From: Glaucostegus cemiculus
Lineage: Eukaryota
NCBI GenBank assembly: GCA_976551045.1
Contig: CDPCPM010000076.1
Coordinates: 26,226,001 to 26,290,000, forward strand
Direction of reading: 5' to 3'
Length of the DNA: 64,000 bases
In this document: positions 1-64,000 of the stretch, piece after piece
Numbering within the stretch: position 1 is the first letter of the stretch
Layout of the letters: each line of letters opens with the position of its first letter
The notes under the pieces: model-generated
Told to the model about the DNA's origin: nothing
Databases searched by the model: none
The model's input: only the letters and a program-made list of their open reading frames with translations
Made by a program: the position numbers and the translations under genes

Positions 1-1493
1 TCACAAAATGCAGATAGTCAGAGAGTGGTACTTTGCACCCCCATTCGTCCAATGTTGAATTCTTTGCGGAAGGAAATTAATAGAAATCACTGAACTGATG
101 TGAATTTCAATGTTTTGCAATGTGTTGTCACTGAAAAAAGTCTTGAAAAGGTTAAGTATTGTAAAATGAAGTGTAAATGAGTATTTAACACTCATAATTA
201 CTGCAAACAACTCTTTTTATCCTGAAAACCTGGGTTTATACTTGAGGAATATCAAATTTCTTCATACCACAATAACAATTGCATAGGTTTAAATGAGTAA
301 TAATATCTTTTAAACACTTACTTATAATTTGCCTGTATGTACCTAAATCCCAAACGTAGATCCCAATCTGAGAACACAATTCACAATATAAAATTTTGTG
401 AAGGTAAATGATGAAATTTGCTTGCGAATTCCTGGTTTGTTGTCTGAAAATTCTTCTCTGTGCTTGATCACTTCACTGCCCCTGGACTCAAGTGATCCCA
501 AAGCCGATGTCAGAATGAATTAACTTTGGGGAAAAATAAACCCCACACCTCAAAGACTGCAAGATCTTGTTACAGACAGCTTTTGGGGGGGCAACAGAGA
601 GTGTGTCACCACCAACTAGAAAATCTTGGATTTATATGCTATCTTCACTCATCTTGTCCTGAGTCTGCCTTCAAAAGCATCGGAAAGACACATGGCAGTG
701 AGGATGGGAATAAATGTGAAAGACATAGTTATTTAAGGTGATTATTGTTCTAACCACGGATTTTGTTTTCATACAGTTAGAATTGGCTGGAGCAAGTTTG
801 CTCTGACAGGTAGGGGACAAGGAAATTGTGAAGTGAATCATATTTCTGATTTTGGACAAAGTATCTGTGGCAGATCGAATTTGTAACAATGCAATCAGGT
901 AGAAGTGACCATTCAGAGGCAGGAGGAGCAAATCACATCTTGCTAAATGACATTCCCTTCTGCAGAGGCGAGCACTTAAGACATGCACCAATTGTGGTTC
1001 CTATGGTAGAGAATCCAGGTGTTGTTCCAGCAGGTGCAGTGATACAGCTTAAAGGAACACAGTTAGAATTTAGACACACAAGCCACTTTTCTTCTGCAGT
1101 TGGTTGCTTGTTTTTAATTTGCTAGAACAGCAGAAACAAGTGTTGTTGTAGATATAAGAACTATTTGCTTCCTATCCATTGACAAGTTTGCACAATTCCT
1201 ATCAAATTTTATCAGCAATTGATGAAATATCCATATTTTCTCCTTAATTGAAGAATGCCAAATCCTGCATCACCTTGAGTAGAACTGGCAAAAAGGTCAG
1301 CAGCAACTACATCACTCTGCTGAAAGGCATTTCAGGTGGGAGGAAGCGTCCAGTGGAGCAGTGGTGGGAGAGTGCAGGGAAGATTTTCTGACCAGGAATG
1401 TAAATGAAGATTATACAGGAATTAGAAGAATCACATAATACAAAGATTAATTAGCCACATGCTAGCACAAAGCAAGGCCGTCATATTAAAAAG

Positions 1494-1660
1494 AAACTGC
1501 TGGAGGGACTCAGCAGGTCAAAAGAAAAGCAGGTCAGATGAAGAGTCTTGATCCTCAACATCGACTGTACATTTCCCTCCACAGATGCTGCCTGACCCAC
1601 TGAGTTCCTCCAGCAGTTTGTTTTTTGCTCCATATTCCAGCACGTGCAGTCTCTTGTGTC
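1494..1660 (+). mobile_element. Fold-back (Penelope/retrozyme-like) short element with decayed hammerhead-like core
   Basis: Inverted arms at 1494-1520 (AAACTGCTGGAGGGACTCAGCAGGTCA) and 1593-1619 (TGACCCACTGAGTTCCTCCAGCAGTTT). The spacer contains CAGATGA-AGAGTCTTGATCC-TCAACATCGAC. Homologous to the copy at 63805-63977. Confidence 0.7.
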
Positions 1661-3499
1661 TCGAAGGCTGTAAAATTATTTGATTCAGAATTTTTGAAAC
1701 AGTCATGAAATAAATATTGCAGAAGAACAAAAGTGTTTATAGTAACCAAAAGCATTTTTTCTACATTGCTCTGTTGATATTTCTGAATACCACATTAAAT
1801 TGTTAGTGCCTTTAAGTACTTGGTGAGCTTAGTAAATGAAACAGAAGAATTTAACATCCACACAGTGACAGTGGCTACATTTATATTTCACTAAGACTTA
1901 TGCTGGGAGTGCAGGTTCTGAACAATCAGCCCTTACACATCCATATGCAACCTGAAAGTAAACTTGGTGAGATTTTCTGGCTGATTTTCCCTCTATAGAC
2001 TGAGGAATGAACTTTGGAGTTTTCTTTTCTGTTTGGCGCTGCAGCACACTGGGCAGGACAATGACCCAGTGAACTGCGGGGCAGCTGAGCAGATGTTTTT
2101 GCCAAATCAAGTTACCTAAGGAAAGTTTCAAAAGCAGTCACTTAAATAGTGAGTGTGTTATAAGATGTTGCTTCCAATGCCCACAATTCTCACATCTATA
2201 CTTTGCATTGAAAAGCTCTGTGCTGCAGCCCATTTAAAACATATAATTTTCTTTGAAAGTGTGGAATGTAATGCTTTCTCAGAAATTAGTTTGAAGAAAA
2301 AGCCTTCAATAGAATTTTAATTACATGTCCAGTCCTTGAAGAAAATAATTGAAGGCACAATCATACTTTTATATTCAAGCAAGTTTGTAATCAATTTCCT
2401 AATTGTTTATCCCTCCAACAATTTGTGCTTTAATATACTTTCACATTAAACACTCTATTAAAAAAAAATCTGGAAATGGCAAGTAAGTGGGAAATTAATT
2501 CAACAGTTTAATCTAGAGCTAATAACAGTTGCAACCTTGAAAAAGATGGTACAGCAGGGAGGTAATTAACAGTTTATTCCCATTTGATAAAAATAATCCA
2601 CTTTAATTCCATTGTAATTTCACCTCAAAATATGGAGCCACAGGCTGGTGCTGTGCTCTGCTATGATTAGCTGCTTATTGCCATCTTATTTACAGCAAGA
2701 GTTACTAATGCCTCATTGTTGAACTGGTTTTAAAATATAAACAGTTATCAATGTGGTTTATGGAAGAACTGGTAATGGGCAAAAAGATAGTCATAGTGGT
2801 GTAACAAAAAAAAAAACATGTCAATGGCAACTGTACCTTTCAAATGCCCTATTTATTGAAAACAGTTCACAAGGAATCACATTTCAATGGTTCCAATATG
2901 CCACATCACGTTTGTTTTGGAGTATATTTATATGCATTGTGCTCACCTGCTGGCTCTTTATGAATCATTTAGAGAAAGAAAAGAGGTGGATAAAAGTGGA
3001 ATAATGAACTTTTTTTTCCCTCAAAGTATAATGGTACAGCTACTTTATGAACACAGTATGGCTGTTGATGCTGGGTTTTCCATTATTATTTAAGATGCCA
3101 TAGAAGGGATGAGCACATTAGCTCTGTTCTTTGTTGGAAAAAAAATTAAATGGTTTAAAAAGGATCTTTTCTATATTGCCCCACTTTTTACTGCTTGGTT
3201 TCTCACAATGCAAGATTTAAAGGTATGATTACAGCTGGGGGCCATCTACAAACCCATTTCTTTTGTTCCATTTTCACAATAATTCTTGGTTGCTGTCCTC
3301 TGAAATACAAGAATGGTGAATCAGAAGGTTTCAAACCTTTGCTTTCCACAGACATGAATAATACAGGAAAGTGATATCTCGATGAGCAATGATTTATCCT
3401 TGGGAAACAGGCAGCAAAGCTCCCAAAAGGTCAAGATCATTACTGTTTTCGAAGTCCGTACAACTTCTCATTAACATCTCTATTACATAGTTTAACCAC

Positions 3500-3755: not shown

Positions 3756-3857
3756 ATTGTGGAAGCAATTGATGTACTTCTGGTCCTCATATATTGTACC
3801 AGTCTGTTCTGTACAAACAGGAGTGAATTGTTTCAGACTTAAGTTATTTTTTAAAAC

Positions 3858-8619: not shown

Positions 8620-9090
8620 AATAAAAACAAAAGCACTGTCGATGCTGGAATCTAAAATATAACATAAAATGTGGGAAATGCGCGGCAGATCAGGCTGCAT
8701 CTGTGAGAAGAGAAAACAAATAATGTTTCAGCTCAAAGACCCTTTATCAGAACTGGCACGGAGACAGAAGAAGTTTGTTAAACTGCAGTGAGTGTGTGAG
8801 AAGGGAGATATCTCTGGTAGGGCAAAACTGGGGTGACCATGGGGAGTAAATTGTAAACAAAATTACCTGATCAATAAATGAATGGGAGCAGTTACAGAGT
8901 GAGGAGACAGATAAAAGAACATCGACAGAAGAATATGGGAATTGCCAAATACAGAGCAGGAAGACATGCCCAACAGATCAGGCTGGGCATGTCCTCCACT
9001 CCCAGAGGGAGAGAAGAAACATACAAACAAGCTGAGCTAATATCACAGATGGATGACTGACACAGAGAAATCAAGTTGCCTGAAGTTGCA
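8620..9090 (-). mobile_element. Penelope-type terminal fragment with hammerhead-like core
   Basis: 8620-8757 is the reverse of the fold-back arm. The minus strand reads CTGATAA-AGGGTCTTTGAGCT-GAAAC-ATTA. A purine-rich stretch follows, as in the 24505-25110 copy. The right boundary is uncertain. Confidence 0.55.
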
Positions 9091-10652: not shown

Positions 10653-10962
10653 ACAATAAGTGCCAAAGCTAGTTCACAGGTGGGGATGGGGTGGTGGGGG
10701 AGGAGATACACTACACATCATTGCACAGCAGGGATGTGGTGAGTTGTTCGAGCTTACCCATGACAGTCAATTATGTTGCTGAGATCCTGTTGTCACTTTA
10801 AATCTTACTGAGAGTTACCAGGTGGTGAAACATTTCCACACTTAATTGTACAGATGAGCTTGGATCTTACTGCTCAGAGGCAGGGGTGCCTGCATGAGAG
10901 AGTCAGCCTCATGGATGTGGAGCCAAACGTGGGGATGTGGGGAACATTGTGTGTGACCGTGG

Positions 10963-13934: not shown

Positions 13935-14080
13935 CCATTAACATTTCAGGTTGATGGCTTTTTAGTCAGTCTTGAAACATCAACTCTTTTTCTCTCCACA
14001 AATATGCTGCCTGATTTGGTGAGCATTTCCAACAATTTTTCTTTTCATTTCAGCTCTCCAGCATCTTCTGCATTTTACTT
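13935..14080. mobile_element. Degenerate fold-back (Penelope-type) element
   Basis: TTAACATTTCAGGTTGATGGCTTT is followed by GAAACATCAACTCTTTTTCTCTCCACAAATATGCTGCCTGATTTGGTGAGCATTTCCAACA...CCAGCATC. Confidence 0.6.
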
Positions 14081-14081
14081 G

Positions 14082-14326
14082 GAACATAGAATATAGAATA
14101 TTACAGCACAGGAACAGGCCCTTCAGCCCACGATGTTGAAATTAAGCTAATGGTGCCTAATTAAACAGGTTCCTTCTGCCTGCACATGATCCATATCCCT
14201 CCACTCCCTGCTTGTTCATGTGCCTATCTAAGAGCCTCTTAAACTCCTCTTTCATATCTGCATCCGCCACCACCCCTGGCAGTACATTCCAGGCACCCAC
14301 CACTCTCTGTATATAAAAAAAACTTG
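14082..14326 (-). mobile_element. CR1 LINE 3' end
   Basis: Starts GAACATAGAATATAGAATATTACAGCACAGGAACAGGCCCTTCAGCCCA and is the reverse complement of the family at 10430-10652. Confidence 0.88.
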
Positions 14327-16631
14327 AACGGAAGTGTAAGCTATTGATGTGAGTGGAAGGCTCTGCAAATGGATGCTGAATGTTCCGGCTCCAGACTTAT
14401 GATAGTGCGATAGAACTGCAGTTGTCTTGAACAAGTTAGGTACCATAAAGTACATTTTTAATTTTGTACTGAAATCTATTGAGTCTGTCTTTGGCTCTTT
14501 TTTGTTGTCATAATTAGCAATCTGGAACAAATCTATTTCCGGTTGACATTTTAGCAGTGAAGCCTCCTCATTAATGTATTGGGGCTATGATCCCATTTAA
14601 AATTTATTTGGATTAATAATCTGGTGCAGGATGCCTAAAATCCATTGCATTTGAACTCTTGGAGTCATGATTAAGAATTCAAATACTAACAGGAATTGAT
14701 CTAATTTGGTTTGTTATGGAAGCAAAGCTATAAGTAATGCTCCTGTCAGCCTTTACAGTAGTCCTGCAGGTCAGCTGCAAATCAGATGGTGAGTAATGGG
14801 CCAAGTATTAGAGTGTGATTTGTTTTTTTAAAAGTCATAATATTCATGTTCCTGATCATAGCTTTAGTCATGCTGATGAAATCTACATGATAAATGAATA
14901 ACTGGGCACATTTAATTTTATCAGATTTCCAGAACAATTTTAATAAGTTTGCCAGTCATTCCTGATAAATTAACTAAAAGATACAATCATTTGAATTAAT
15001 ATTGGCCAAATCATTGTTCTGAGCATTAGAACTCGTAGCTTAGCAACACTTTCTAGTATTTGAAAGTCGTTGCATTTGTTCTCTTGCTGAATGTTGGAAA
15101 GCTGGATGCTTTCAGCTGGAAAAGAGATCTGTGATACAATTCGAAGTGTTAAGTGTTCATGGTTATTCTGTACAATGGACATTTATTGTCATGTTATATT
15201 GTCATAAACATATATTTAAAGTGGATTACAGCTTGAAGTTAAAACATACTGACATTGTTAAGGTGCATACACTGAATCACTTACGTACTGAACCTCATTG
15301 CAAAAGGAGAAAAGTTCATCTTTGAAATTGCCATTAAAACAACATATTTTCACAACTGCCTGTTTTTTCCATTTACTTAGGTGCTTATAAATAGGGTTGT
15401 GCTCTCAGCCACTTGCAACGTGTTGTAAAATCTGGGTAACACCATTGCCAAAAGCTCCACAGAATCTATAAAGCTCTGAGCCAACTGTGACACAATGCAG
15501 GCTATACAAAGTTGCTCCTTTTGTGTCATTCTTTGTAAGGACTATGTGAGCCAATGAACCAAGAGACCCTGCAACATGTAACCCAATGTATTTAGTGCCT
15601 GATTTTGCAAGTCTGGGTCCAGGTTTAACTGGAATCCATCCAGTGTTGGTGCTATGTGCTATTCACTGTAATGAGTGCTTGATGTGACCTATAAAATCTG
15701 CTAAAATGTTGTCACAGTGTCATTTCACTTCTGCAGGCAAGCAACATAGTAATAAATCAGATATGAATAAAAATATAGCCTCAGTCCAAGCAGCAGAAAT
15801 CATCAGCTATTTACGAGTGACTGGTATTAGCTCAAATCTGCAATAGTTTAATAACTTTGAAATGCAATAAGTCATAACACTGCCCTCAAGCTCACAACAA
15901 AACCAGGAGACTATGAACAGAAGTTTGGCATCTTTGGAAAATAATTATTACCATAAGAGTAGGAAAACAGAGGAATGGGAGAAAAAGACATGGAAAATGT
16001 ACAGGTGTCCTAAATGGCTCCCTGGAATTTGGTGGAGTGGGCTGATTAGTGAAAACTAATGTCCTCACTGAAAGCCCAGGCATGTCAGAAATAATAAAAT
16101 GTTTACTTTGTGATGTAGGAATGGGATAGAAAGAACTATTTTTTTGCGAACTGGATGATAGTGAACATTATGAGCCCACTGTCTTTGGATAAAAGCATAC
16201 CTTTCAGTCATTCAGCCACCTGTTGTACACAGGCAAAAGTGGGAATGAGGATATTGCAGGGCAGTTGAATAAATATTGCCTGTTTTACATTTTGACAAGA
16301 GGTCAAAATACCCACCATACCTAACGATTTTTGTATTTTGTCAATGTCTTGAAGCTCTAGCATGTGAAACACAGTAACATCAGTAACGTATTCACCCCAT
16401 GGGTATACAATCAAATCCAATCCAGACCTGGGACTTTGAAGACGTAAAGCATCTTTTCCATCTTTCCAATTAGGGAGAGTATTATGTAAAAAAAATGTTT
16501 TAAACTAATTATTGAATTAGCTTAAACTATATAATGTCCAGAAGCAGCAAAGGCAATTTTCATAGAAAGAGGGAATGGTGTGAGGTTTTGCCCTGAGGAA
16601 GTAGGTATAAAAAACATTGGTGTGGACGAGC

Positions 16632-16651
16632 GGGGGCGGGGGGGGGGGGGG
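16632..16651. repeat. Poly-G tract
   Basis: GGGGGC followed by 14 G. Confidence 0.9.
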
Positions 16652-17653
16652 TTTGTGGGAAAAAATGTAGGGAGAAGCGTTGTACAACATCAGTGTATTA
16701 GTTGCATTAATATGTAATAACTGAGTGGATAATTCTGAATGTTTGCACAATTATGGCTTTTGTGTATTACTGCTTCTAAGATCATCACGTGTTTATTGTG
16801 TTTCTTATTAAACACAATGTTTTCCTTTCTGCAGACCACTAAACTTCACTGTTGCCTGGCTTACACAGGGAAAGAAAGATTTAAGAACAGATGGTAGTGA
16901 GATGAATTACTAAGGCGTATGTAATCTCCTGGGGCCATGTGTACCTTTGTATTGCATTTCCAACCATCTGTTATTCTATATTGTCCACCTCAACAATAAT
17001 ACTTGTAAAAATTCTTACGTTATTACTCAGGGCAGAGAGACCAAACATACCATGTACTACCGTGGTGTTCAAGTGTGTTTCTAGTCTTCAAGCGTTTAAT
17101 CTTTTGAGTTATGATAGATCTATTAAGCTTTCAAAATACTCATTTCATTTCCTTACTACCTGCAAGGATTTTCTACATGTAAATTTTCCATATCTTTCTT
17201 GTAATAAATGGTTCAATGATTAGAATAGTATGAATAGATGGAAAAATTGCAATTTATGACTGAAATATCACAGTCCTCAAAAGGATTTAGAGACTCTCAC
17301 GACTTCACAGTTGGTTAAGTGAACTGACAGATAAAACAAATGGCTGCCTTTGATCTGCAGAAGCTTTACACTCAAAATCCTGAGCTGTAAAGGGTAAATC
17401 AGACAGCAGGTGTTTGATGCTCTACTTTTGGTCCAATCACATAGGACTCAAGAAAAAGTGCATAGATAAAAATTCATCCTACTTGAAAATAAACAGCGGG
17501 CTTAAAGTAAATGTAACTTCATTTCAGATGTGATTTCAGAATTGCAATTTACTCTTTCTTTTGCTTGACCTGCCCCTGGCTTAGCTTTCTAATTATTACA
17601 GTATCTCAATGTAGCTTCCGCTAGCTAAGAGTCCTGAGAGGTTGATGTGGCAG

Positions 17654-17654
<1 letters not shown>

Positions 17655-17684
<30 letters not shown>
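17655..17684. repeat. (TG)15 microsatellite
   Basis: Read directly from the sequence. Confidence 0.95.
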
Positions 17685-17686
<2 letters not shown>

Positions 17687-17687
17687 G

Positions 17688-17908
17688 TAGGGTTGCTGAT
17701 TCTGATTGGACAATTTCCTGGAAATTTCATCACATAACTTCCTGTATCCCTATCCATAACTAATAAGTGAAAGCGTTAAGAAATTGAGAGATAAGCAACT
17801 TTTAAAAAAATCATGTTTTTTCTCATGGCTGCTTACAGAAATTCCTGGGAGATTAACCTTTAATTCCTACATATTTCAGGACAGCTCTTCTGAAGGTTAA
17901 CAGCCCTG
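17688..17908. mobile_element. Possible decayed hAT-type MITE
   Basis: Ends TAGGGTTGCTGA ... TTAACAGCCCTG resemble degenerate (T/C)AGGGTTGCCAA-type TIRs. No TSD was confirmed. Confidence 0.35.
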
Positions 17909-18244
17909 GTTTGAGGGCTATAAAGAAAGTGAGTAAATGTCCAAAAGGCAGTCTGGCTACAGGGGGATTTTTGATTCATTTCACCCTCCCTGGATTGAAA
18001 TGCTTTACTCATCAGCTAGGCTTGCAATCCTTCAACACAATAATGATTTGAAAGTATAAAACCTATGGTCTCTAGCTGTTATATTATCAAGTTGCTGCCG
18101 CAAAAATGTACCATCTTTAAATTTAGTGTTTAATTGAAAATAATGGGAGAACTGGGAATTTGTGAATGTCATGTATTAACTTGGTGGCGTTATTTCAGGG
18201 ACTTTTGCTACATCATGCTCAAAAAGTTATGAAGTAAGGCAGCA

Positions 18245-18557
18245 AAGAAACAGACCCACTGAGTCTGTGTTAGCCTGCAAACACCCAGTTATATTCATCC
18301 TACACTAATCCCATTTTATTCTCCCACAGACTCATCAATATTCCCCTCCTCCCTTTCCCCCCACGCATTTTTACCACTCACCTACACACTGTTGGGTAAT
18401 TTGCAGCAGTCCATTATGCTTTTGGGATGTGGGAGAAAACTGGAGCACCTGAAGGATATTGATACAGTCACAGGAAGAATGTGCAAACTCAACACGGACA
18501 ACACCAGTGGTCAGGATTGAACCTGAGGCAGCAGCACTATTAGCGGCACCACTATGC
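18245..18557 (-). mobile_element. V-SINE with CR1-like tail (older copy)
   Basis: V-domain on the + strand reads CTTTGGGATGTGGGAGAAAACTGGAGCACCTG...GAATGTGCAAACTC. The reverse tRNA head reads GGATTGAACCTG...GCACCACTATGC. Confidence 0.8.
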
Positions 18558-19389
18558 TAAAGATATTTGCATTAACTTACAAATGCACTCATTTTAGTGT
18601 CCTTGAGCACAATGTGTTTGAATATATTCTGATTTACAGGCACCTTGGTACAAATATTATCAGAATAGAATTATAACACAAAATCAGTACATTGTAATGG
18701 TTTGCCAAATCTCGCCTATATGCTTTAAAGATCGAATCACTTGTGTACAATGTGCATCTGTATATTTTTTTATAATTCAATACAAGCAAAAGAAAAGCAA
18801 ATTAAGGATTAATTAGACTGTGGTGGAAAGCAATAAAATCCCCACTTAGTAGCATACAGCTCAAATCCAAAGGCAGCTTTGACAAGGTTTGAATATTTAA
18901 CAGAATTAATTCCACAATATTAAGTAATTGAATATAAATATCTGGGCACATATGAAGTTGGGGTCACCAAAAAAAGGCTCCTGAGAAATCATGCAAGTCC
19001 TTGTTTTTTTAAAAAAATTGTTGTTTAAAGAGGCATTAAAATCCAACTTGTGCTTTTGCAGACAACATCTGCATCAAGATGCCACAGAGATGAGGGAGGA
19101 AAGGGAGTGCAGGAAAGGGAGAGAAAGAGAGAGAGAGAGAACCAATGGAGTGGCCTGACTGGGCTTTCTTGTGGAACCAGGTCACTCCTTAAAAATCATT
19201 GGAACACCAATGAAGGGGTGGGTGGAGTGGGGTAATGACACGCAGTTCTCCAGCTGGAGGTGTTACCCTACACCCACCACAAGGCATGGGCCAGAGCAAT
19301 CAGGCCTCATACCACAATACCACCAGGCCATTCAGGCCAGCAGTGGCACCAACAGCAGTTTGAGGCATCTGTCACCTGAAGACATCAAT

Positions 19390-19480
19390 GCACGAAAATG
19401 CTGGAGGTGCCCAGTAGTTCAGGCAGTCTCTGTACAGAGAGACAGAGTTAATGATTCACATTGATGAGCTTTCATCAGAA
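19390..19480 (-). mobile_element. Single arm of the fold-back element with an intact CTGATGA box
   Basis: The minus strand reads TTCTGATGAAAGCTCATCAATGTGAATCATTAACTCTGTCTCTCTGTACAGAGACTGCCTGAACTACTGGGCACCTCCAGCATTTT. Confidence 0.65.
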
Positions 19481-20911
19481 TGCAGATGCACAGAAGATTT
19501 GATCTAGGCTCATCACTGTTTGCAGTGAAATTTTTAATCTACTAGAACAGCTAGGCATGGAGGAAACTTGTAAAATAAAAATTAATGCCCAAGTGGGAAA
19601 ATATTGACTCATACTCCATTCACTACTTTCAGCATGATGTACAGTGTTGAGCTGTGTATTAATTATGACTGCTTTATGCCTCAAGTGCTTGGCACACCAA
19701 GTGTATGAGGTACAATATCCATTTTACGGATAAATTGCAATAGGAAGTGCCTGATCCAATTTCCTGCAACACACAACTTAAACAAGAAATGAAGGCAAAC
19801 ACTTCAAAATATGTACCAAACTCTTTTATGTGTAACTTTTGCATTGAAACAATCGGCTTAAATGGGTTCTACTTCCTGGCAAATGTTTCCATGCCTGATG
19901 AAGGACAGACACTGGGAGTATAAACCTTTTCTTTTGTTCAAAGAAAAAAATACAATGCATAATTTAATACTGTTTTTTTTATTTGAACACTTGGTCCCTT
20001 TTGATGACCTGTCATAATTTTTAATCCAAAAGCAGAGTGGATTGTGCGACCTTCCCATTCTCCTCAGCTGTGTCAAAATTCTTGTGTTGTGAATTGGTGA
20101 ATTGACTAAAGTGCATCTGGAAACAGAACTGACCAGATATTGTTAGTCACACACTATAGTGATTCCTTGCGACGTGATCCAAATGCACCTCAATGATCAT
20201 TGACATTCTGAAGCCATTTAATTGTACACAAGTATTTTCTCATGTTGAGGTATATGTGCTTGCAGGTTTACCTCTAACAAACACAAAGGTGATACAAAAG
20301 ATCGCAATTTAGTTCCAGTTAACTTAGACTTTCCTAAGAAATCACTTCTTCTTCATTTCACCATTCTTTGTTTGAAAATTGTCTAAATTTTTTTAACATT
20401 CTTGCATCCAATAAGAGATGGTTCATTCAATTACTAGGGGCACCATCAGTAGTATTCTTTAGTCAGGATACCAGTCTGACAAAACACAGTCTTTTCACTT
20501 AGCTAATATTACTTGCATCTCTGATTATGATTTGAATTATGCTTTAGGAGAAAATGAATGCAAGTGCCAGAGAAATGCCTTTGTAATGGGCATTCTGTTT
20601 GGGAATCCGATACTTTAGGATTAATGTGCAGAAAGTCCAAAAACTTGAGAGTTAGATTACTAATCTAACTTTTGAATGATACTCCAAATTTTCTACATGT
20701 AATCTCCCACCTATCAACTTAAAATCAGTTGTGATAGTGTTTGCTTTGGTGTTGTAGGTTTCAGATAGCCGTTCATTTGTTAACTCTTAAACCTTTTTTA
20801 AATTTGCAGAAGTGTTTTGCACAGGCACTGTGTATTTAATAGTTTTTCATTCTGTAACTGGATTACTCCCTTCGAAGCAATGACATGTTATCTTAACTAC
20901 TTGTTTGCTAG

Positions 20912-21043
20912 GTTTAACTGCAGCAGCCATGGCTGAAGCTATGAAGTTACAAAAACTGAAGCTTGCAACAATGAATAATCTCCATGGTAATGGTAGTCAA
21001 AATGGTGCAGAGTCAGAGAATGAAGAACTGAATTCTAGTACAG
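20912..21043 (+). CDS. DACH2: Dachshund homolog 2, internal coding exon (132 nt, phase 1-1)
   Basis: Acceptor cttaactacttgtttgctag and donor G|gtgagt. Encodes (G)LTAAAMAEAMKLQKLKLATMNNLHGNGSQNGAESENEELNSST(G), matching recalled DACH2 AAAMAEAMKLQK...GNGSQNG and lacking the DACH1 poly-Ala run. Confidence 0.92.
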
Positions 21044-21802
21044 GTGAGTTACCAGTCTGTAAGTACAAGCTACTCAAAGATGCAAATCATTTTGGAATGG
21101 TTTGTTGTGACTATTTATCTACAGATATTTTACACAATTTCATCAGTGCTTCTCCATATAACAAGTGCTATCACAGAATTTTTCCAAAAAATGTACAACT
21201 TTGCAAAGTGCACTCTCAAAAACTGTGGTCACTCTCAAACTGACCATGGGACGGTAGTGGTGAATTCATAACATTCAGTGCTAATGATTTGGATAAAAGC
21301 CTCAATTAGTTTGTGGCAAGGAAGCAAAACAATGGCACCTATGAATTGTCACTATTGTTGACAATTTACACTGCTCCACTCACAAAAGTGGGAGCCCATC
21401 ATTAACCAGCTTCCTTGGATTTGACTTGCCACAGATTATTCTGGTTATTAATCATGATGCAAGAACCCCATTAATGGAATGATTCACAGACCTGACATTT
21501 GATTTAAAAGCTCGGAAAGAGAACATTTGAAAACGCCTAGTCTCATTCCTGTATATAGCAAGTTATTCTTAGAAGTTAATTGCATTTTAGATATATTTTT
21601 CTTAAATTTACATTTCCCAACTTATTTTCTTTCTCCAGCTAGCCTTTCTATATCTAAATTGACTGAAGCTCACCCTCTTTCATTCTCTATCTGCAAATTT
21701 CACGAGTTAAGGAAGTTGGCTAATGTTCTCCTTGAGGTTCAACAAGGTTCTAAATGCCCTGTTGCCCTCACTCTGTCACTAACAACTCACACATCCAACA
21801 TT

Positions 21803-22983
21803 TGGTAGGCTGGTCCTGAATGGTAGGGTACATGGGATCCAAGGTGTTTTGGCAAACTGGATCCAAAGTCAGGTTGGCGAAAGAATAAAGAGGTTAGTTG
21901 TGGGTTGTTGTTTTTCTGACTGGAAGTCTATAAACAGTGGTGTACTACAGGAATAAGCACTGGAACCTTTGTTGTTTGTCATATAAACAAATGACTTGGA
22001 TAGGAATGTCTGATAAGTAAGTTTGTTAACGACACAAGACAAATGGAGTTGTAGACGGTGAGGATGGTTGCCTGAAAATACAAAGGGACATAGATCAGCT
22101 GGAAAGTTGGATGGATAAGTGGTCGATGGAACTTAATCCAGACAAGTGTGAGGTAATTGAATTTGGGTCATATAATACTGGCTGAACATATATAATAAAT
22201 GGTAGAGACATTAAAATTGTTGATGTTCAGAGGGACCTTGGGATACATGTTCCTAGTTCACTGAAAGTGGCAACACAGGTGGATAAGGTGGTGATGAAGG
22301 TGTTTAGCTTGCTTGAGTATAAGAGTTAGGACATAATGTTGCAGCTGTACAAGACATTGGTTAGGCCACTCTTGGAATATTGTGTGTAATTCTGGTCACC
22401 ACATTATCATAAGGATGTGGTAGCACTAGAAAGAGTCCAGAGGAGATTCATCAGGATGATACCTAGAATGGAGTGCCTTAGTTACAAGGAGAGATTGGGT
22501 AGGCTGGGATTATTCTCATTAGAATGCAGGAGGCTGAGCTATGACTTTATAAAGATTTATAAAATTATGAGGGGCCTTGATATAGTAGATAGTCTTTTTC
22601 CAAGGGCAGGGAAGTCTAAAACTAAAGGACATAGGATTAAGATGAGAATGGAAATATTTAAAAGAGATCTGAGGGACATGTTTTTCACATAGAGGGTGGT
22701 GGGTATCAGGAACTGCTGCCACAAAACAACAAATTTCTTGACATTTCAGTCAGTGATGATAAACCTGATCCTGACTGATTCTGAACAAGCTGCCAGAGGA
22801 GGTGGTAGAGGCAGGTAAAATCACACAGTTTGAAAGCTTTTGTTCAGGTGCATAGATAGACAAGTAGTAGAGGGGCATGGGCCACATGCAGGATAATGGA
22901 ATGAGCATAGACAGGCATTGGGGTCGGCATGGATGAGTTGGGTTGAATGTCCTGTTTCCATACTGTATGACTCTATAACTCTA
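21803..22983 (+). mobile_element. CR1 LINE 3' 1.2-kb fragment (decayed RT C-terminus to tail)
   Basis: Shows decayed SGV.QG..LEPLLF..Y.NDLD and KF.DDT-like motifs, plus YKTLVRPLLEYCV.FWSPH and ALERVQRRFIRMIP. The tail is TGTATGACTCTATAACTCTA. Multiple stop codons are present. Confidence 0.93.
22722..22782 (+). mobile_element. Short 3'-tail retro-insertion nested in the CR1
   Basis: 61 bp ending GATAAACCTGATCCTGACTGATTCT, flanked by GAACTGCTGCCA and GAACAAGCTGCCA. Confidence 0.7.
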
Positions 22984-24504
22984 AAAATAATCAGGGCTGA
23001 AGCACGAGGGAAGAAGAATCCAGATTGCTCACTCCAGAAAATTCTTTGATATTTATAGTATTTATGTACTATAAATACTTAGGTATGAACATTTGGTTGC
23101 AAAATATTACACCCCAATCTAATGTGCCAGGTGTTTCTTAAAATGCTTTCTGCTATAGTGTTTCCATGCCGAGGGTATGAGATAACAATAATGAGGAATT
23201 ATTATATTAACTCAGTTAAAAGACTGCATTGCTTTTAAGTCTGTGTTGTTACAATGTGCATATTATTTATAAGAGAATATGTAGGGAATCCTTAAAATGA
23301 TAGCAACTCATTCAGAGTCCTTTGCAACAAATCTGCCGTCATTTTTTACCAACCGGACTCAAGCCTCTGAATAAGTTACTGGCAAATCAAATGATCAGTA
23401 AGTGGTTCTGCAACTCAAATGAAAATATTACAAAACACTACTTACAAGTAAGCAGAGATCACATCTGGAATGTTTAAAATGGCAATGTTCATATAGATAT
23501 AATAATGTGGGACTGAAGGATTTTGGAAGTTAGCCCTTTGCTGAAAACAAGCCACAGAATTATATTATTGGCACATAGCTCAAGACTCTGTTGTACAGAG
23601 CAAGGAGCCTTAGAGTGGAGACAACAGGCTCTTGAGAAAATCCGAGGTTCAGGAGAAAACAGGAAAGCTGAAAACAAAGACCATACAAGCAGGATATTAG
23701 AGATCAGAGCAGTAGGAGAGAGTGGCGAGATCTCTGGGAATGAACTGAAGCAACGTAGGCAAGGAATGATGTGGGAAGTGGATGTTTTAGGGAGATAGTA
23801 TTGGAACCTAGTGATGGGAGAAAACTGTGGGGTGTCAAATCAGAATATGTGGACAGAGCAAGAATACTGATGAGCACTGAAAAAAAATTAGATTGAATAA
23901 AGGTGATATTTTGCATCATATTTTAATTGTGAAGATTAGTTTAAAGTTTTAAGAACATAGCATCTCACTGTCAGTGGGAATAATAATCCTTTTCTCGTGT
24001 CATTTTATCAATGACTGGAATAAAGATGTAATATTACGGTATGTGGCATTTATCAGTTGTTAAGTGCTTTATGATGATTATTTTCATGAAAGTAACTCTG
24101 TCTGTCTGCATTTATGTTGTTAAAATGATACATTTATGTAAACTACTGTGCAGTTATTTGGAAGGCACATTCTAAATAATTGCTATTGATTTTCATGTTT
24201 GAACAATTGTCTGGGTTCCAAGTTGGCAGGGAGAGATAAAATATCTGCCTTCCATTGGTGCTTTGTGGTTCTACATTGCTCATTTTCACTGTATAGGTAA
24301 CAGATACCAAATCTACCTTTACCTGGAGTCCTGTTATGGGCCTATTCCAGTATTTTAAAAAATGGAAATAGAATCAGATCAGTAAGTGGTTCTGTAAAGG
24401 CTTTGTGTATAAAATGTAATATTGCCATGTTCATCAACATTCTACAGGGAAATGTTAAAAACCAAGGTAATGTGTTCACAAACATACATCTATAATTATA
24501 TAAT

Positions 24505-25110
24505 AAATACAATACTGCAGGTACTGGAAATCTGAAATAAAACAGAACATGCTGGAAATGCTCCAACCTGGTGTGAGAGAAGCAGCATTAACATTCTTGG
24601 CCTTTGACCTTACATCATAACTGAGAAAAACTAGAAATAAAGCAAGTTTTAAGTTGTAGAGATATGGATGAGGAAGAGGAAGAGGGAAAAGAATCTGTAC
24701 TAGAGTAGAACCCGGGGGAGATTGACACATATGATGGTGGTGTTACTGAATGAGAGTGCCAATGTTAGTGATTTGCACAAGGAGTGTCTGGGGGATGTAT
24801 CAATTAGAGGAGATGATTAAAACCTGAAATTACCAGAAGAGAGTAGAAACGAACTACTGAATCCTGGAACTGGGAGATGCAAGACTTCTGTTATACACCA
24901 TCCTCACTTGCAACATTCAATGATTCTGCCCTCCACCTCATCATAGGCCCTGCCTTTTGTTCTGTACTCTCCTCCCCACTTTATCTGCAACTTATGATTA
25001 GTTTTATCTGTAACATTTCTGAGTTCTAAAGAGAGTCTTAGACCAGAAACGTTAACTCTGTTTCTCTTCCTACCTGCTGTGTTTGTTCAGCATCTTGTGT
25101 TATATTTTCG
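24505..25110. mobile_element. Long inverted (head-to-head) Penelope-type remnant
   Basis: The left arm is CTGCAGGTACTGGAAATCTGAAATAAAACAGAACATGCTGG...GCAAGTTTTAAGTTGTAGAGA. It is mirrored by TCTGCAACTTA...GTTCTAAAGAGAGTCTTAGACCAGAAACGTTAACTCTGTTTCTC...CAGCATCTTGTGTT. Confidence 0.6.
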
Positions 25111-26879
25111 AACTGCTCCTTTTTCAACAATTTATTTAGAATATTACTTAGCAGTTGTTTAAGGGTCTAAGAGGACAAATTGATATGAAGGAATGTGAGC
25201 AACTCAATAGGAAGGCTCAAATGATTACTGACAATGCTACTTGATTTCCCCTACATATTCTCATCCCACCACGTGTAAACTGCTGGAACATGGATGTTTT
25301 TTGTATAAATATGCACCAGCGAAACTTACCAAGCCATTCTCTGAACAGGACTTTCCAATATATTGTGCCCCAGACAAATGTTTGATATAGTAACGTTAGA
25401 ATTAACACTTATTTACATGTTTATGTTTGATTGGCTTTCACATGAGACTGAATTAAAGTTAATGTTCAAGTAATATAATAGTATAGTAATATAAGATGAA
25501 TGGAATTGCTTCCAGTTAACTTGGATTAACATTATCTTCCCATCCACCAAATCTACAAGATCTCCAAATCAACATTATTATTGACAAAATCTAATATTCT
25601 TCCTGTTTTTTAGCTTTATGATTTCAAGTAACACATAGATAAATTAAATGCAATTTCAAGGTTGACATAAATTCATATAAATAAATATTCTGAGCACTAC
25701 TGTTTGGCAAATTACATCATCAGTTCCGGATCATAGTCCTTTGTGAGACAATACAACTCATTGAATGGTCAGTTTAAATAGTCACTGGATTCAGACTTGA
25801 GTAATTTTTACTTCATCTGTCAGTGGTCTTAACCTTTATTTAATGGTTTCTACATGACTCTGCATCACCATTCCCTCATGACCAACAGGCTGTACCATTC
25901 TGCTGTGCTCCAAATTCGAAACACCATGCTTTATTGTTTTAGTAAATTGCTTTGCGATTTATTGCTGCCTGTGTTTTGTAATCCATAAAAGACTAAGATG
26001 CATGTGCAAATTTACACAGAGCAGTTGGCTGATTGATTCTGCCACTTGCCACATAAGCAGAGCTAGATATTTGTGCAAGTTTCTATATCTCATTGTCACC
26101 TAGCAGCTTCTTTACAGGAGATGGTTGGAAACAAATTGCATTAACAATCCAAAATTATTTCCAGGGGCACGGAATGGAGGATTTTTGCCAATTGCAGGAT
26201 GATCAAAGTATCTTCATTAACATAATTAATTTTATTACAACAAACAAAAACTTGTGAAGCTTTGAACTTGTGATAAGAGTAGTCAATTATATTTTTCCTT
26301 AATGAGTACCTTAATATGAAGTCAAAATATGAAGTTGAATAAACAGGTGAAAAGTATGACTGCAGTCTTTTCATGCATTAATATGGTGTTAACACTGATG
26401 GTTTGAATTTGTGCTACCTGGATAGTATTAACAAGTTAATGCACTTTAATAGCACCAAATTAATACAAGTTCTCTGGCACTCAAAGGGCACAATCAGTGA
26501 CTAAGAATGAGCTGTGTGTCAGTCAGGTGGTAAATCTGCAGCCAGGTTAATCTGTTGAGAATGCAGTTACATTATACAGGGATGAATAAAATCAGTGCTC
26601 TGATTGATCGAATAAAGCATACACAGATCTCATCAGTTCCGGGTAGTAACTTCATGAATTACTAGAACAGGATCCACACATCTAAATTACAATATTTAGA
26701 AGGCCACTCCTGATTAAAATATTTTTTTCTGATACAATCTGGATGTTTCCCTTCTATTATGGGTTGCTGAATCTGATGAAGAAGTGAGAGAATCTTAAAA
26801 TAGACTACTTGTGTTGGTTTTGGTTCTATTGCAACATTTTCCATCCTCTTTCAGTGGGCAAATCAAACATTATTTAGAT

Positions 26880-44871: not shown

Positions 44872-45080
44872 AAAATACTGCAGATGTTGGAATAAAAATG
44901 GGGAAACCTAGAAATGCTCAGACATGTGGAGAGAGAAAAAAACAAAGTTATCATTTCAGGTCTATGACCTTTCAGTAAGATTATTTTAATGAAAGGTTAT
45001 CAATCTGAAATGTCAACTGTGTATCTCTCTCCACAGGTGCTGCCTGACTTGCTGAGTATTTCCAGCATTTTGCACTTTCA
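44872..45080. mobile_element. Fold-back element with two opposed hammerhead-like cores
   Basis: TGTGGAGAGAGA...GTTATCATTTCAGGTCTATGACCTTTCA is mirrored by TGAAAGGTTATCAATCTGAAATGTCAACTGTGTATCTCTCTCCACA, followed by GCTGCCTGACTTGCTGAGTATTTCCAGCA. Confidence 0.72.
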
Positions 45081-46654
45081 TTAAAGCTTTGGATGAGGGG
45101 ATTAAAAAAAAAATCACCTTTGGGAAAGTAGCAGGAAATTCAAGTGCATTTTTGGATTATCTCAGCACAACAAAATAGTTGACTAATTGGGCTGGATTCT
45201 CTACTTTGCAGTGTTGTTTAGAACTTTGATTCACAGCTCTGACATGCCATAATCTTGATCTGGTTCTTGGTTAGAAGTCATCATTACTTGGGTCCTAGTG
45301 ATATTACAGTGGTTCACAAGGAGCAGACTGCCCTCAGTTTAAGATTCTTCCTCAAAAACAAACATAGCACAATGATTTTGACCACAGAACTGATTTTTAT
45401 TTAAAAATCCAAAGTCTAAACCTGATCAAGTCTTTTGTGTACACAGAAGCCAATTTAGTAAATTCATTCTGGATTTTGGAAGCCACTAGGTGCGAATAAT
45501 AATATTAAATAACTTGTATTACATGCCCTGTCATAATGTGAGCAAAATTTCTTTGTGCATTTGAGGCCTGCTTCATCATTAGTTTAAGGGAAGCAAGCTT
45601 ACCTATTCTGCTGTTGTGGTATCAGGTGTTTGTGGTCTTTTGTTTAGGCCCTTCTTTTAAGTATTTTCCTCAAGGTTTGCTCCCACATCTCTATCCTTGT
45701 TGATATCCTTAAGGCCCCATACTGTCCCACAGTCCAATCACATGTCCAACAATTCCCCTGGTTTCCATTTCCATCCCCCAATTTCAGGTCCCATTGTCAC
45801 TTCTCCCACCCTACTCCATTATCCCAGGGCATCCCTCTGCAGAGAATGGTATGCAAACAAATATGTAATTTGGGAGTATCCCCACTAAACTAGAGTTCCC
45901 CTACCCTCTCATGCAGTACCACCTTAATACATCTTTTCTGGTGCAGTACTTCTAGATCAATGTGTTAGATTTGTTTGGCTTTAGGTAAGATTAAGACACT
46001 ATTGGTACAAAATGGAGGGATAGGAAGCCTCTGCTCCATTTATAGGACCCTACAGATCTACATTTATTGTGTTGAACCTACAGCACATTCCATCTGGTGG
46101 ACTTGAGCTTTAGCTCGGGTAGAAAGGGGGGTGAGAGCAGGAGACCAGACCCCAGCTCTTTCCAATATTTACATAAAATGAGTGGGGAAAGGCAACCTAC
46201 ACACGTCCTTACTGTAGGGAAAAGAAATCTAGAACTGATGGAAGATTTTATGATTATATTTTCTCCTTTTTTGCCATTATCCCATTCCCTACTCTAGCGC
46301 TTCATTTCAGACTATTGACAAATTGGGAGTGCTTAGTAATAACATATGAGGCAGAAATACCCTGTGCAAACATTGAGGACATCTTTCCCAAATGCAGATA
46401 AAGCAAAGCCCCAGATTAAACAAAGAAAGAGTTGTGGTAATTAGAAAACCAAACTGGTTGAAGATTTCCTGTATTTGCTTTAGCTAATCAAGTTGTAAAC
46501 CTAATGGTTATAAATACATTTTTCCTGCTTTTTTTTAGAATGATCAAAGGTATTACTCCTCAAAAGTTCAGTGAATGGCTTAGATATAAGCAATGCCCTG
46601 TAATTTATTTACTGACATTTCCTGTCCTATTGTAATTATACAAATGATCAAATG

Positions 46655-51416: not shown

Positions 51417-53777
51417 GTAAGCATAGTCTGCATGCAACTTTTTTTTTCTAGGCCTGCAAGGACTTGCTAGTATTTGCACGTGTATGATGGTGTTGGATGA
51501 CTGCCGCAAGGTTAGGAACTCAGTGCACTAAAATGTGTAATGAGTGAACTCCAAACCTCCAAAAGCAAATGAATAGTGTTGGAAAGTATGTACACCTAAA
51601 CAAAATTCTGAAGCAACATTGTACATTTGAAATATACCCCAACACTATAAGGGAGGGGATGGAGTGAGTGGGTAAGAAGAGAAATTCAATAAAATTGCAA
51701 GAAGGCATGTTTTTTTCCTCCACATAACACAACATGCTTCATTGATTCTATATTAAGGGCATTTCAATAATATTAGACACTGTAGCTCAGCTCATGTTAC
51801 AGGTAGAACTCGCAGAGAAATCATCCTTGCAGCTACCTCTTTTGCAAGAATCACAACCACTGATGATAAAGCTTCTCTTGCAGCAAAGCTCCCAAGATGT
51901 TCCCTGATCTGCTGGGTTGGGAGGATTTATAGCCAGTTATGAGCACAGGAATCCTCATTCACAGCAATTAGTATAACACCCATGTGCCTCCTTGGGAACT
52001 TTATACAACTCATCATGTCATCAATAAAATCTGGTACATTAAACTACTATTTGATGCCTATTTGTAAACATTCTATTTATAGGGAGATACAAATACAATT
52101 TAACATTATGATTTATATATGACACACACCCATATGCACTTTCTATACTAGACATTACTGTGGGAGAAAAGATTGAATCTAGCCTTGCTGATATTTGAAA
52201 ACATAGCCCGAATTATAGTGCTTCGTTCCCTGTTAGAGCTACCACAGTATCTTTGATCATGAACCATCAAATAGATATATAAAAATCTCTTTATATTGTT
52301 TGAAAAGAATCACTTTCATCATGCTGTTGTTGGAGAGCTTAAAAATTACAGGGAATAGTTTGAAAAAAAAGGATTTGGAAAGGGGAAAAGAAAGGATCTC
52401 AGATTGCAAAAGAAATTAGTAACAGGCTTCTAAAAATCATTATATTAAGATTGTACTTGCACAAACTAATTAAAGTTGAAAAGAATGAAAATTTGTTATG
52501 TTATCCATCACATCTTGCATGCTGGCCTGTTGTGATCCAACAACTGATGATTGTGTTGTGATTTAGGGTTTTCCTCAATGTCTTTGTCTTATTGACCTTC
52601 CAATTGTAATGTTTTTGCATGAACGAATTGATATTTACTGTCAGAATTGAACCCTTTAAGGCTTTTCCAGTAATTATTCAGATCTGCAGCAGCCAATCAT
52701 CCATGATTAAATGGTTATGACTTTAAATAGTTGATGAGTCAGTCCTTGCTCATCATCTGCTGTCTGTACCCCTGTCAACTACCCTTAACAAATACAGTTG
52801 AATTAGTACCTGGAACAAAACCCTTGATTTGTAACTGCTTCCCTGATTCACTGAGCTAGCCTCATCCCATTAACAGGTCCAGTTCAGCATAGAATTTTTC
52901 ACTGCTTGCCAGGGATTGGTAATATAATAAATCTCAAAGCAGCAGCAAGCTATGTTTACCAGGTTCACGTTGTGTCCATAACTGATTTCTTCGATTGACT
53001 GAGGTGGCAATGCCAAATGTTTGGGGTTGAGTGGGGCAATTTTAGACTATTCCAGGAATCCCATCAGATAGGTCCCTAACAGGTCCAACACTACTCATAT
53101 AACCTCCTTTGACAATTTATTTTCTCTTTATGTATTGGTATCTGATCTGGTAAGAGGTTAGGCAATCTTTGTGATGACCATGGAAAATAATCAACTGATT
53201 TTCACGTTGGTTACATACTCATTTGCCAAGAGTATCATTGGCACATGCACAGGTGCAGCTCTGGGTTGGATGAAAGTCCCAGAAATCAAGAATGGAAGTG
53301 TGGACTTCCAGAGGAATTACTTTTCAATTCTGCTTCTGCCAGTTTTGTATCACAAGAATGAATTGGATAGGTTTGGCAGACAGTTCTCTCTCTAAGTAGA
53401 GGACCATTGTGAAACTTGGATTTTCTACTGGTGGATATCTCAGTTGTGTGGCCATTTACATAAGCTCTCAGCTCCTACGCGATTAATAACTTCATCATTG
53501 GGCAAGGGACCGAGGTGGGGGTAGTGAGCAGTTGCTGTAGTCTGTGATGTGATTTATACACTTTGATGCCCAATCTCAATTTTGAAATCAAAGGAAGGGG
53601 ACCTCCACTTTAGACTTGTTTTAGCTAAGTCTGAAATAATTATTTCTTTCTTTATTTAAACCTAATTAAAACAAAAAAACCCACAAAATGACTACATGTT
53701 TATCATAATTAACCTTGTGCAGTATGGTTGTTGGACCACTCCTTGTCATATTACAGACACTGCTTTTAAATAGAGTT

Positions 53778-61602: not shown

Positions 61603-63804
61603 AGTCCTTAGATAAATTATAAGAAAGGTTCTGCTAAATAGTAAGCAATCACTCTGGTCCCCAAAGTAAATAGATTTTATGAAGGAATCAAGGACAGAAA
61701 TTTAAAAAGGCAAAAAGCTGGATTCTTTGCATAGCTCCACTGTATTAAAGATCATGTACATTTCTATAGTGTGCTGCTACTTTAAGAATATGGACATTAG
61801 CAGTTTTGACATTTATATTGCTGGAAGGTGGAACTCTATCTGGGATTAGCACCTGCTCACTATCCAGATAGTTTATTAAAATAACCCCACTGACTAATGC
61901 AATTTATTATGCCCATTCAGGATATTTCTGGCAAATACCTAGTCAGTTCAAGTCTGCTAAACACAGGCTTATTTCCTGTAAGAGTCAAAAGGGTGATTAT
62001 GGAAAAAAATGACCTCACTCCTTTTATTGGCTATACACTGCCTGCTGCAGGAACTTCTTCAGTCAATATCATGCAATAAGTCAAATGTAGAATGAATATA
62101 GCTTTAATTTTGTTTTGCTTTCATTTAACCCAAAATTGATTTCTGAATCTTCTGACAGTACAACTGTGAGCAATTGTTGATGCTTAGATTTGGGGTATTG
62201 TAGAATCCCTTGACTGGGGATTTTAAGGTTATGTCCTGCCAGCATGTTAGGGGGACCCCTGCAACAATGGAACATTCTGTCACTGGCTTTCCTTGGATCT
62301 GGTAAAGCCACCCTGAAACCTTCTTGCACTTTCTGAAAACTTGTATTGGACAGGCCATGTGGACATTCCATTTCTCTGATACTACCTTTTCTGTTTTTTA
62401 CTGGAATTTCCCTCTGTCAATTCTTCTTGTCATCAGCAATATCGTGCAGAATGTATTTTTGTCCTCCCTATAAGGTCCCAATTCCTGGTATTGTCCCAGA
62501 ATCTCCATATGATGGGATTCCTTATCTTCTTGCATTTCCCTTCTTCCTATAATATTTATGCTTTTAGTTCACAGATTGAGGGTCACTTACTTTACCTTCC
62601 CTTTTACTCTTTTGAACCTCAGTGCCAATGTATATTAAAGGCCTTCTCTTAACATAACATTCTTTTAACTCATAACATTAAAAAAATTACCTTGTTTTAC
62701 TTCTAATTCATGTAACTATTCTATATATTTTTTTAACTTAATGGGCTAAATCTTTAAAGTTTAACATAAGCTTTATGTGAGCTTCATCAATTGCATCATG
62801 GAATATAATTTGCTGCAGTTGATTTATGATTGGTTGGGAAATGGCACAGAGGTTTGTTGTTCACCCATTCAGAGCACAGAATGTGAGTTGGCCATTCTGT
62901 CTATGATAAAGTCATAGCAGACCCCCATTTTACGTAACCTTATCAACAGATCAATGTTGTCTGACTATTTTACAGAAGTAACTTTGAGTTAATTTTTAGT
63001 TCCACAACAGTACCGTTTATTTGATTTAATCAATAAAAAGACATAAAGGTTTATTTTGAGGGAGTGGAAGTCCAACAGCATTCAAATTGTCTGTGTAATA
63101 CAACTGATCTCTATATTAGTGTCAGCCGTCTCTCCCACTACTCACACTTCTAGCTCCCTAATAATTCCTCCCATATTCTTCTTCAGCCATCTGAGGGAAT
63201 GAAATTTGGATGCTTGAGAATACTCCATGGAGTAAAAGATTTCATGGTTTCATTTTAGAAATGGTCTAATGCTAAGAGGGTCTCCATCAAGTAAGCTTAT
63301 TAAAACTACAAATCTTTAACATTTGGAGGCACCTGTTTCTGAACAAAACATAAGCCTACCAGACACACATTGATTTTGTTGGGGGTCCAACAAGAGCTCC
63401 CAATTCACACTTACTGTTTTTTTTCCTTGATCAACTTTATTTTCACCAGATCAGGTATTCCATTTGACCTTAGGCATGTGGAGTACAGCATAGGCTGTGA
63501 AAGTTCAGACCAGCCTACACTGATCAGAAAGTATTGGAGGAATAAATGGTTCACTGTATAAAACTGAGTGCAGTTCTGGAAAAAAAATTATGCTTGACTT
63601 AAAAACTAGAACATCAGTAATGGTAAGTTTTATTCTAAGGAGTAAGTTATTTTTCATTGCATATATTTCATAATATTGTATCTACATGGAAACTCCCCTT
63701 ATTTTTGAGTTTGGTTTACAACAAGTGAGATTAAAATATAAGCAGAAAACAAGTTGATTTTCAGATATTAACAAATGCTAATGGCAAGGTGGATTTTTAA
63801 TGCG

Positions 63805-63977
63805 AAAAACTCAATGATGCTGAAGGAACTTAGCAGGCCAGGCAGCACCAGAAGAAGGGTCTTGACCCAAAACGTTGACCTCCTGCTTTTCTCCATGGAT
63901 GCTGCCTGGCCTGCTGACTTCCTCCAGTATCATTGTGTTTTTCATCTAGATTCCAGCATCTGCAGTCCTTTGCTTCT
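63805..63977 (+). mobile_element. Best-preserved fold-back element with hammerhead-like core
   Basis: 35-nt inverted arms at 63813-63847 and 63900-63934 with 4 mismatches. The spacer reads CAGAAGA-A-GGGTC-TT-GACCC-AAAAC-GTTGAC. Confidence 0.78.
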
Positions 63978-64000
63978 TTGGATTTTCAATGTTATTCATT

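Follow-up and report, generated by a model that had tools for sequence, protein, structure and literature searches.

Truncated Penelope-like pseudo-LTR insertion as the probable identity of a hammerhead-bearing fold-back element in Glaucostegus cemiculus

A 64,000-nucleotide stretch of the Glaucostegus cemiculus genome (GenBank assembly GCA_976551045.1, contig CDPCPM010000076.1, positions 26,226,001 to 26,290,000; hereafter the window) carries near its right end a short fold-back sequence with a hammerhead-ribozyme-like core. The locus raises the question of whether such sequences form a retroelement family of their own or are parts of a larger element. The genome is 2.85 Gb in size, with 37% GC and CpG dinucleotides at 0.16 of the expected frequency. 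The original prediction favored the former view and described a dispersed, non-autonomous, ribozyme-processed family with Penelope-like or retrozyme-like features. We conclude with high confidence that the window element is a truncated pseudo-LTR (pLTR) of an EN+ Penelope-like element, present as two head-to-head pieces within a 13-bp target site duplication (TSD). The two pieces likely derive from one aborted insertion, and the hammerhead between the arms is likely dead.

The window element spans 174 bases (63804-63977) and lies between two 13-bp direct repeats (63790..63802 and 63979..63991, neither assigned a strand) that are identical at 12 of 13 positions. Its inverted arms (63804-63847 and 63900-63943) are 44 nt long and 89% complementary, and the folding energy of the strand, which forms a long hairpin, is -88 kcal/mol (z = -10.35), a stability equaled by 0 of 200 shuffled sequences. 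The left arm (63804..63847, minus strand) represents a second element end, which is inverted, 5'-truncated and tailless, with its outer end at +67 relative to the predicted cut. To its right follow a damaged minimal type I hammerhead (63848..63880, plus strand) and the pLTR downstream of the predicted cut (63877..63946, plus strand). This pLTR segment includes the right arm and stops where the shorter of two 3' end classes in the family does, +65..+71 after the predicted cut, as do 40 of 100 sampled arms. The last ~31 bp (63947..63977, plus strand) are a one-sided tail belonging to the longer end class at +99..+103 (50 of 100 arms; loci L291/L312 and L304/L311). Both the 13-bp duplication and the one-sided tail had been missed by the original prediction.

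The window hammerhead was read against a column profile of 79 related ends, with positions numbered from established hammerhead knowledge and the layout as in PMC4209133. The 5' strand of helix I has been lost at the junction, and the core (63849-63855) has A in place of U4 (at 63850), either by mutation or as a remnant of the junction. Stem II is perfect (63857-61 with 63864-68), which confirms the GGGTC/GACCC stem previously reported for this copy. G12 is replaced by A at 63869; the same position is G in 49 and A in 30 of the 79 related ends, in line with the earlier reading of CAAAAC as a CpG-decayed CGAAAC. Helix III is a short palindrome (63872-75), and cleavage is predicted after 63876. 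Since the helix I 5' strand, U4 and G12 are all missing, the hammerhead of the window copy is very likely inactive, judging from established hammerhead chemistry. Pyrimidine tracts that terminate in AG, or in what CpG decay makes of it, were also observed at 63886-63898 and 63939-63949, and at -50..-31 in the family. These pLTR tracts look like splice acceptors, one of them directly at the start of helix I, and dispersed pLTR copies could supply the introns of host genes with cryptic acceptors.

Eight clear copies in the window (E 5e-13 to 3e-45) were identified with profiles made from four sets of genomic relatives; the reversed window gave 0 matches at E 0.05. All seven copies listed originally are real, and an eighth had been overlooked (25018-25115); eight copies in 64 kb amount to one per 8 kb, close to the spacing of one per 8-9 kb proposed before. 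A possible copy at 3610 was found to be a weak arm fragment only (3614-3675, E 0.008). Together with 12734-12790 and 51890-51933, it makes up a set of three weak fragments (E 0.005-0.036) that consist of arm alone and may represent older copies. The description of a fold-back family applies to four of the eight copies (1494, 13935, 44872 and 63805), and the other four lack an inverted arm. Apart from the element described above, the fold-backs comprise a member of the U4-to-A subfamily (1488..1665, plus strand, with its inverted arm at 1488-1520; E 3e-45), a copy that lost the first core box at the junction (13938..14080, plus strand, inverted piece 13938-13966; E 9e-18), and a head-to-head copy (44872..45090, given on the plus strand, with 44872-44980 on the minus and 44981-45090 on the plus strand; E 7e-33 and 3e-13) in which both arms hold hammerhead remnants. 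The single-ended copies include one of an older subfamily in which G8 is changed to A (8624..8762, minus strand; E 1e-31), one with an intact first core box and a damaged second box and stem II (19386..19482, minus strand; E 1e-16), one that is heavily decayed (24504..24627, minus strand; E 7e-15), and the newly found copy, with G5 changed to A (25018..25115, plus strand; E 5e-13). At least four subfamilies are recognized among the copies. Core or stem is damaged in eight of eight, so the earlier statements that each window copy is defective and probably inactive were right.

The copy at 13938-14080 adjoins a repeat (14080-14285) whose end we take to resemble the tail of a CR1-type LINE or a shark SINE. 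An open stretch of 181 codons (10127-10669, plus strand) contains a motif that presumably resembles the C-terminus of a CR1-type LINE ORF2. No tRNA-derived SINE head was seen (ARAGORN, 0 genes).

Because the 79 ends were picked by a fuzzy core match, the profile is biased towards intact cores. It contains both core boxes, a bulged A, a stem II of 4-5 bp beginning with G-C, a four-base palindrome for helix III, U17, and a helix I in which 3 bp precede a mismatch. The family majority has the core boxes, an NUH site, helices I and II and the palindromic helix III, and in the window subfamily position 17 is U and helix I contains an A-C mismatch. The CTGATGA box proposed originally is a real core, with the correction that its variable position is A, not T, in the window subfamily (70 of 79 ends). 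Genome-wide, the intact-core pattern has 1,221 exact matches versus 0 for a reversed control. Of the 55 arm-anchored copies in which the motif is covered, 25 keep all core boxes, and the majority of three of four subfamilies retains both core boxes. At the U4 position of one subfamily pattern, a hand count of the first 100 listed of 167 matches gave A 38, T 54, C 7 and G 1, indicating that a lineage with a changed catalytic core, represented in the window at 1529-1665, has spread widely.

Structural searches and covariation were less informative. A search of the whole window against Rfam at gathering scores was negative (0 hits), and an intact copy searched at E <= 10 gave four chance hits at E 4-9, none of them to a hammerhead family. 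Energy folding of three intact cores as monomer and dimer did not produce the expected hammerhead dimer. Over the whole structure, 81.1% of cells are paired versus 80.5% in shuffled data (93/500), and the covariation score (38/500) is likewise not significant; with slid partners, just 14-35% of cells are paired. The sole two-sided change is at pair 2.1-1.1 (C-G 21, U-A 16) and is probably one event, two of the subfamilies having C-G here and two having U-A. By hand count of the first 100 of 1,931 matches, this pair is C-G in 95, U-A in 3, U-G in 2 and C-A in 0 (Fisher p 6e-5, from copies that are related to each other). At pair 10.1-11.1, the first 100 of the same matches hold three A-C mismatches versus one A-U.

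The larger element emerges from loci elsewhere in the genome. At many of the 30 closest loci, the core and right arm end a longer pyrimidine-rich sequence, and 6 of the 30 are preceded on the same strand by a GIY-YIG-like frame; RT motifs were reached by walking upstream from core and arm loci. Locus L082 has one natural open frame of 476 aa with RT motifs, a C-x4-C-x2-C linker and GIY-YIG. When compared with 3244 candidates, this frame matched 33 longer proteins (841-1650 aa) at E <= 1e-20, the best being 51% identical. Two of three scanned homologs scored above both the Pfam RVT_1 and GIY-YIG cut-offs and the third above RVT_1 only. The genome's own RT and GIY-YIG fragments are below the Pfam curated cut-offs (three of eight matched in each of two scans), and no uninterrupted full-length ORF was found in the genome. 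The C-x4-C-x2-C linker is present in proteins P0001, P0003 and P0004; a search for solved structures similar to P0001 gave 0 matches. At locus L311, a direct repeat (442-1071 and 3503-4163; ~630-660 bp, 77%) flanks the ORF and has a hammerhead core in each copy, which makes one clear case of pLTR-ORF-pLTR. At locus L312, residues 1-904 of a homolog were mapped in broken pieces, and the tail runs into sequence matching residue 1. The RT + GIY-YIG frame, the L311 repeat and the L312 tail together identify core, arm and tail as the pLTR of an EN+ Penelope-like element. Penelope ORF remnants were found neither in the window nor in its two neighboring stretches, so the link of the window copy to the ORF is by homology.

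The four features tested identify the family as an EN+ Penelope-like element that carries a minimal hammerhead. At family level it combines an RT with a C-terminal GIY-YIG in one ORF, partial-tandem pLTRs that each contain a hammerhead (L311), and an inverted 5'-truncated copy with a one-sided tail and a short TSD of variable length. The original prediction is upheld here in its hammerhead likeness, as the layout is minimal type I, and in its Penelope link, as the motif belongs to the terminal repeat of RT + GIY-YIG elements; it had proposed a search for a linked Penelope RT/GIY-YIG ORF, which exists outside the window (L082, L311, L312), and for tandem copies, and the window has no tandem array of the unit. 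A CX2-5CxxC linker before a C-terminal GIY-YIG is a distinguishing feature of Neptune and Nematis elements (PMC8557442). The family has both the C-terminal GIY-YIG and the linker in this position, and the motif points to Neptune or Nematis as the probable clade. The copy at locus L312 (563-4100) is near full-length at ~3.5 kb and runs from pLTR ~+63 at its start to ~+68 at its end. It corresponds nearly exactly to a single circularly permuted unit, probably flanked by a duplication of 9-11 bp, an arrangement that fits a tandem or circular template.

How the copies end was examined in a sample anchored on a 35-nt arm motif that lies downstream of the core. Of its 5,800 exact matches, the first 100, all located on five contigs, were used; sampling by arm motif involves no selection on core or junction. 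Three arms (L213, L239 and L282) were dropped, their break being set by a non-element flank of the reference, as were two more that are the second arms of counted insertions (L255 and L257), which gives n = 95; the TSD count retains the latter two. The two 3' end classes described above are ~33 bp apart, as measured with references that stop at about +106, and any longer run-on is beyond the measured range. Flank matches of at least 8 bp were observed in 22 of 86 pairs versus 2.0 expected, with lengths of 8-16, and are divided into 15 of 36 two-ended and 7 of 50 one-ended cases. A few of them sit away from the ends and may be chance, and the other 64 of the 86 pairs lack any duplication of at least 8 bp. 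Among the 38 two-ended cases the junctions are scattered and, since they differ among copies, the hairpin is not a self-copying unit.

The 5' breaks are distributed unevenly. They fall at -40..+20 of the cut in 45 of 95 arms, at -200..-41 in 8 and further upstream in 42, and the sequence upstream of the breaks is clearly foreign or inverted-arm DNA. Break density per base is 1.2 at -40..-31 versus 0.05 at -100..-41 (n = 97), a step that indicates an edge, not a smooth decay; at the hammerhead 5' edge, breakpoint density falls ~15-fold per base. There is no breakpoint peak at the cut site, with 7 of 95 at -5..+1. At helix I, the edge falls on a pyrimidine tract that terminates in CAG, and in Drosophila an intron end maps to the 5' end of helix I (PMC4209133). 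Candidate causes of the edge are a transcript 5' end, a splice acceptor or polymerase stalling. No literature on such a breakpoint pattern was found among titles and the opening lines of abstracts, which argues only weakly that none exists. Near the end of the GIY-YIG frame, 5' breaks form another cluster (18 of 97 at -450..-301; L186-L285).

Three RNA runs, of unconfirmed species match, contain 8,365 to 24,933 reads on the intact pLTR on both strands, and 82-90% of the pLTR reads continue into unlike sequence. In these standard-library runs, which bear only weakly on self-cleavage, neither read starts nor read ends pile up on the pLTR, which fits read-through of many copies. The unique flanks of the window copy have no reads in the three runs, a result that is uninformative on expression with the species match unconfirmed.

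These data bear on two other explanations of the short copies. Long inverted arms, small size, flanking duplications and a high copy number (the 5,800 exact matches to the 35-nt arm motif) would all be expected if the arms were the terminal inverted repeats of a MITE-type DNA transposon. However, an adjacent inverted arm is present in 37 of 95 cases, and 58 arms are single-ended; where the ends can be classified, they differ by a tail found on exactly one of them in 25 of 29 cases (p = 5e-5 versus an even split). The duplications vary from 8 to 16 bp in length, and an RT + GIY-YIG protein is what is linked to the element. A MITE or TIR transposon is largely refuted by the unequal ends and variable duplications, and we give this explanation practically no weight. 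The separate family of the original prediction would correspond to non-autonomous, retrozyme-like elements, of which short hammerhead RNAs self-excise, circularise and are re-inserted by a Penelope protein. The concentration of short arms around the cut (45 of 95, versus 8 in the next 160 bases), the 1,221 intact cores and the presence of the family in RNA reads of both strands (species unconfirmed) would suit such elements, and in a 2026 preprint animal retrozymes are traced back to Penelope pLTRs and reported from one chondrichthyan genome (bioRxiv 10.64898/2026.07.22.740005). Yet retrozymes are by definition tandem arrays whose hammerheads are of the canonical type I, no such array is present in the window, and the short copies begin at many different positions with scattered junction pairs. 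Breakpoints and read ends fail to accumulate at the cut, and the 42 of 95 arms that break further upstream extend >200 bases into the pLTR or ORF. With core and arm forming the terminal repeat of long RT + GIY-YIG elements, and with such junctions, breakpoints and reads, the claims of a separate non-autonomous family and of ribozyme processing are not borne out, and we consider retrozyme-like propagation very unlikely. A non-LTR retrozyme in the strict sense was rejected for the window, which has no head-to-tail array and in which the cores are minimal, not canonical.

A further explanation accepts the Penelope assignment and holds that, in this lineage, the motif is non-functional as a ribozyme and is kept as a structural or protein-binding signal. 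It concerns activity only and is compatible with the main explanation. The success of the U4A form (38 of the first 100 listed matches) and the U17 and helix I A-C mismatch of the window subfamily are consistent with it, as is the report that hammerhead mutants had no effect on Poseidon insertion in vitro (PMC11167929). On the other hand, three of four subfamilies keep both core boxes in the majority, and helix I has a compensatory change. We consider this explanation possible but somewhat unlikely.

For the preferred explanation, an aborted insertion of an EN+ Penelope pLTR, a mechanism can be proposed from work on the Poseidon protein. In vitro, this protein cuts and extends both target strands, and it starts reverse transcription from a pair of adjacent internal RNA sites, by which the tail is defined (PMC11167929). 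In G. cemiculus, the element's own protein would similarly make the insertion, and each cut strand would prime a short cDNA, one from each start site. Both cDNAs would stop early, in or near the hammerhead, and their joining head to head would leave a hairpin. Alternatively, the inverted junction may arise by self-priming on an antisense template and not by two-strand priming (PMC3846280). By analogy with published systems, the hammerhead of intact elements would cut after GUU or GUC, weakly, and only as a dimer or aided by protein (PMC4209133, PMC11167929). More speculatively, and in our view doubtful, the stubs may be run-off cDNAs primed in the upstream pLTR of an uncleaved RNA that has its 5' end, or a splice acceptor, where helix I starts, with the one-sided tail resulting from strand-specific start sites.

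The window copy is a dead stub, and its layout is an ordinary one already published for Penelope elements. EN+ Penelope insertion units consist of an inverted 5'-truncated copy, a one-sided tail of 30-40 bp and a short TSD (PMC3846280, PMC8557442). The rotifer unit has an inverted pLTR, an optional 31-bp tail on one and a TSD of 8-10 bp (PMC3846280), and Drosophila has inverted terminal repeats of variable size (PMC2377424). The head-to-head copy, the tail at one end and the variable duplication are shared with EN+ insertion units, and the longer copies have the partial tandem pLTR-ORF-pLTR structure of EN+ Penelope-like elements (PMC3846280, PMC8557442). The difference is only in size, as the window copy has 174 bp and is without ORF sequence. 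Like Poseidon PAc of Anolis (Frangieh 2024, PMC11167929), the family has a hammerhead ~70-100 nt before two 3' end positions, a tail between both 3' ends and no RNA read ends at the cut. Unlike Poseidon PAc, which belongs to a different clade, homology to ORF residue 1 starts after the tail (L312) and not inside the hammerhead.

The motif itself is similar to the minimal hammerheads that metazoan Penelope pLTRs carry (Cervera and De la Pena 2014, PMC4209133) in its core boxes, G10.1-C11.1, the extra base between positions 9 and 10.1, the short helix I, and a palindromic 15.2-16.2 with no real helix III. Both also occur as many single dispersed copies with some opposite-strand pairs. Stem II is 4-5 bp here, in contrast to 7-8 bp in the Schistosoma example (PMC4209133), and further differences from the published motif are the U17 and helix I mismatch of the window subfamily and the U4A of one lineage. 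Dimeric Penelope hammerheads are credited to Lunse, Weinberg and Breaker, as cited in PMC6765202. The portions of PMC4209133 available to us name no cartilaginous fish among the hosts, and no description of this Penelope pLTR family was found in the accessible parts of the shark and elasmobranch literature; the family may be named in Repbase or Dfam. Type I hammerheads and Penelope ancestry are shared with animal non-LTR retrozymes (PMC7229834, bioRxiv 10.64898/2026.07.22.740005), and the short copies are non-coding, as are those retrozymes (PMC7229834). Retrozymes form head-to-tail tandem units with canonical hammerheads and circular RNAs (PMC7229834, bioRxiv 10.64898/2026.07.22.740005), whereas the copies described here lie dispersed, either singly or head to head, and have minimal cores and 5' ends that vary.

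For the locus itself, a dead stub, the significance is small, and hammerhead scans of the G. cemiculus genome should be expected to return mostly transposon debris. With at least 5,800 exact arm matches in one subfamily, the family allows Penelope insertions to be studied in a large natural sample, and the statistics of its breakpoints and tails are relevant to the formation of inverted copies and to the part of hammerhead cleavage in transposition. If the stubs are indeed run-off cDNAs, the ribozyme would mark the end of the template without cutting during insertion, and thousands of stubs would record how Penelope elements insert.
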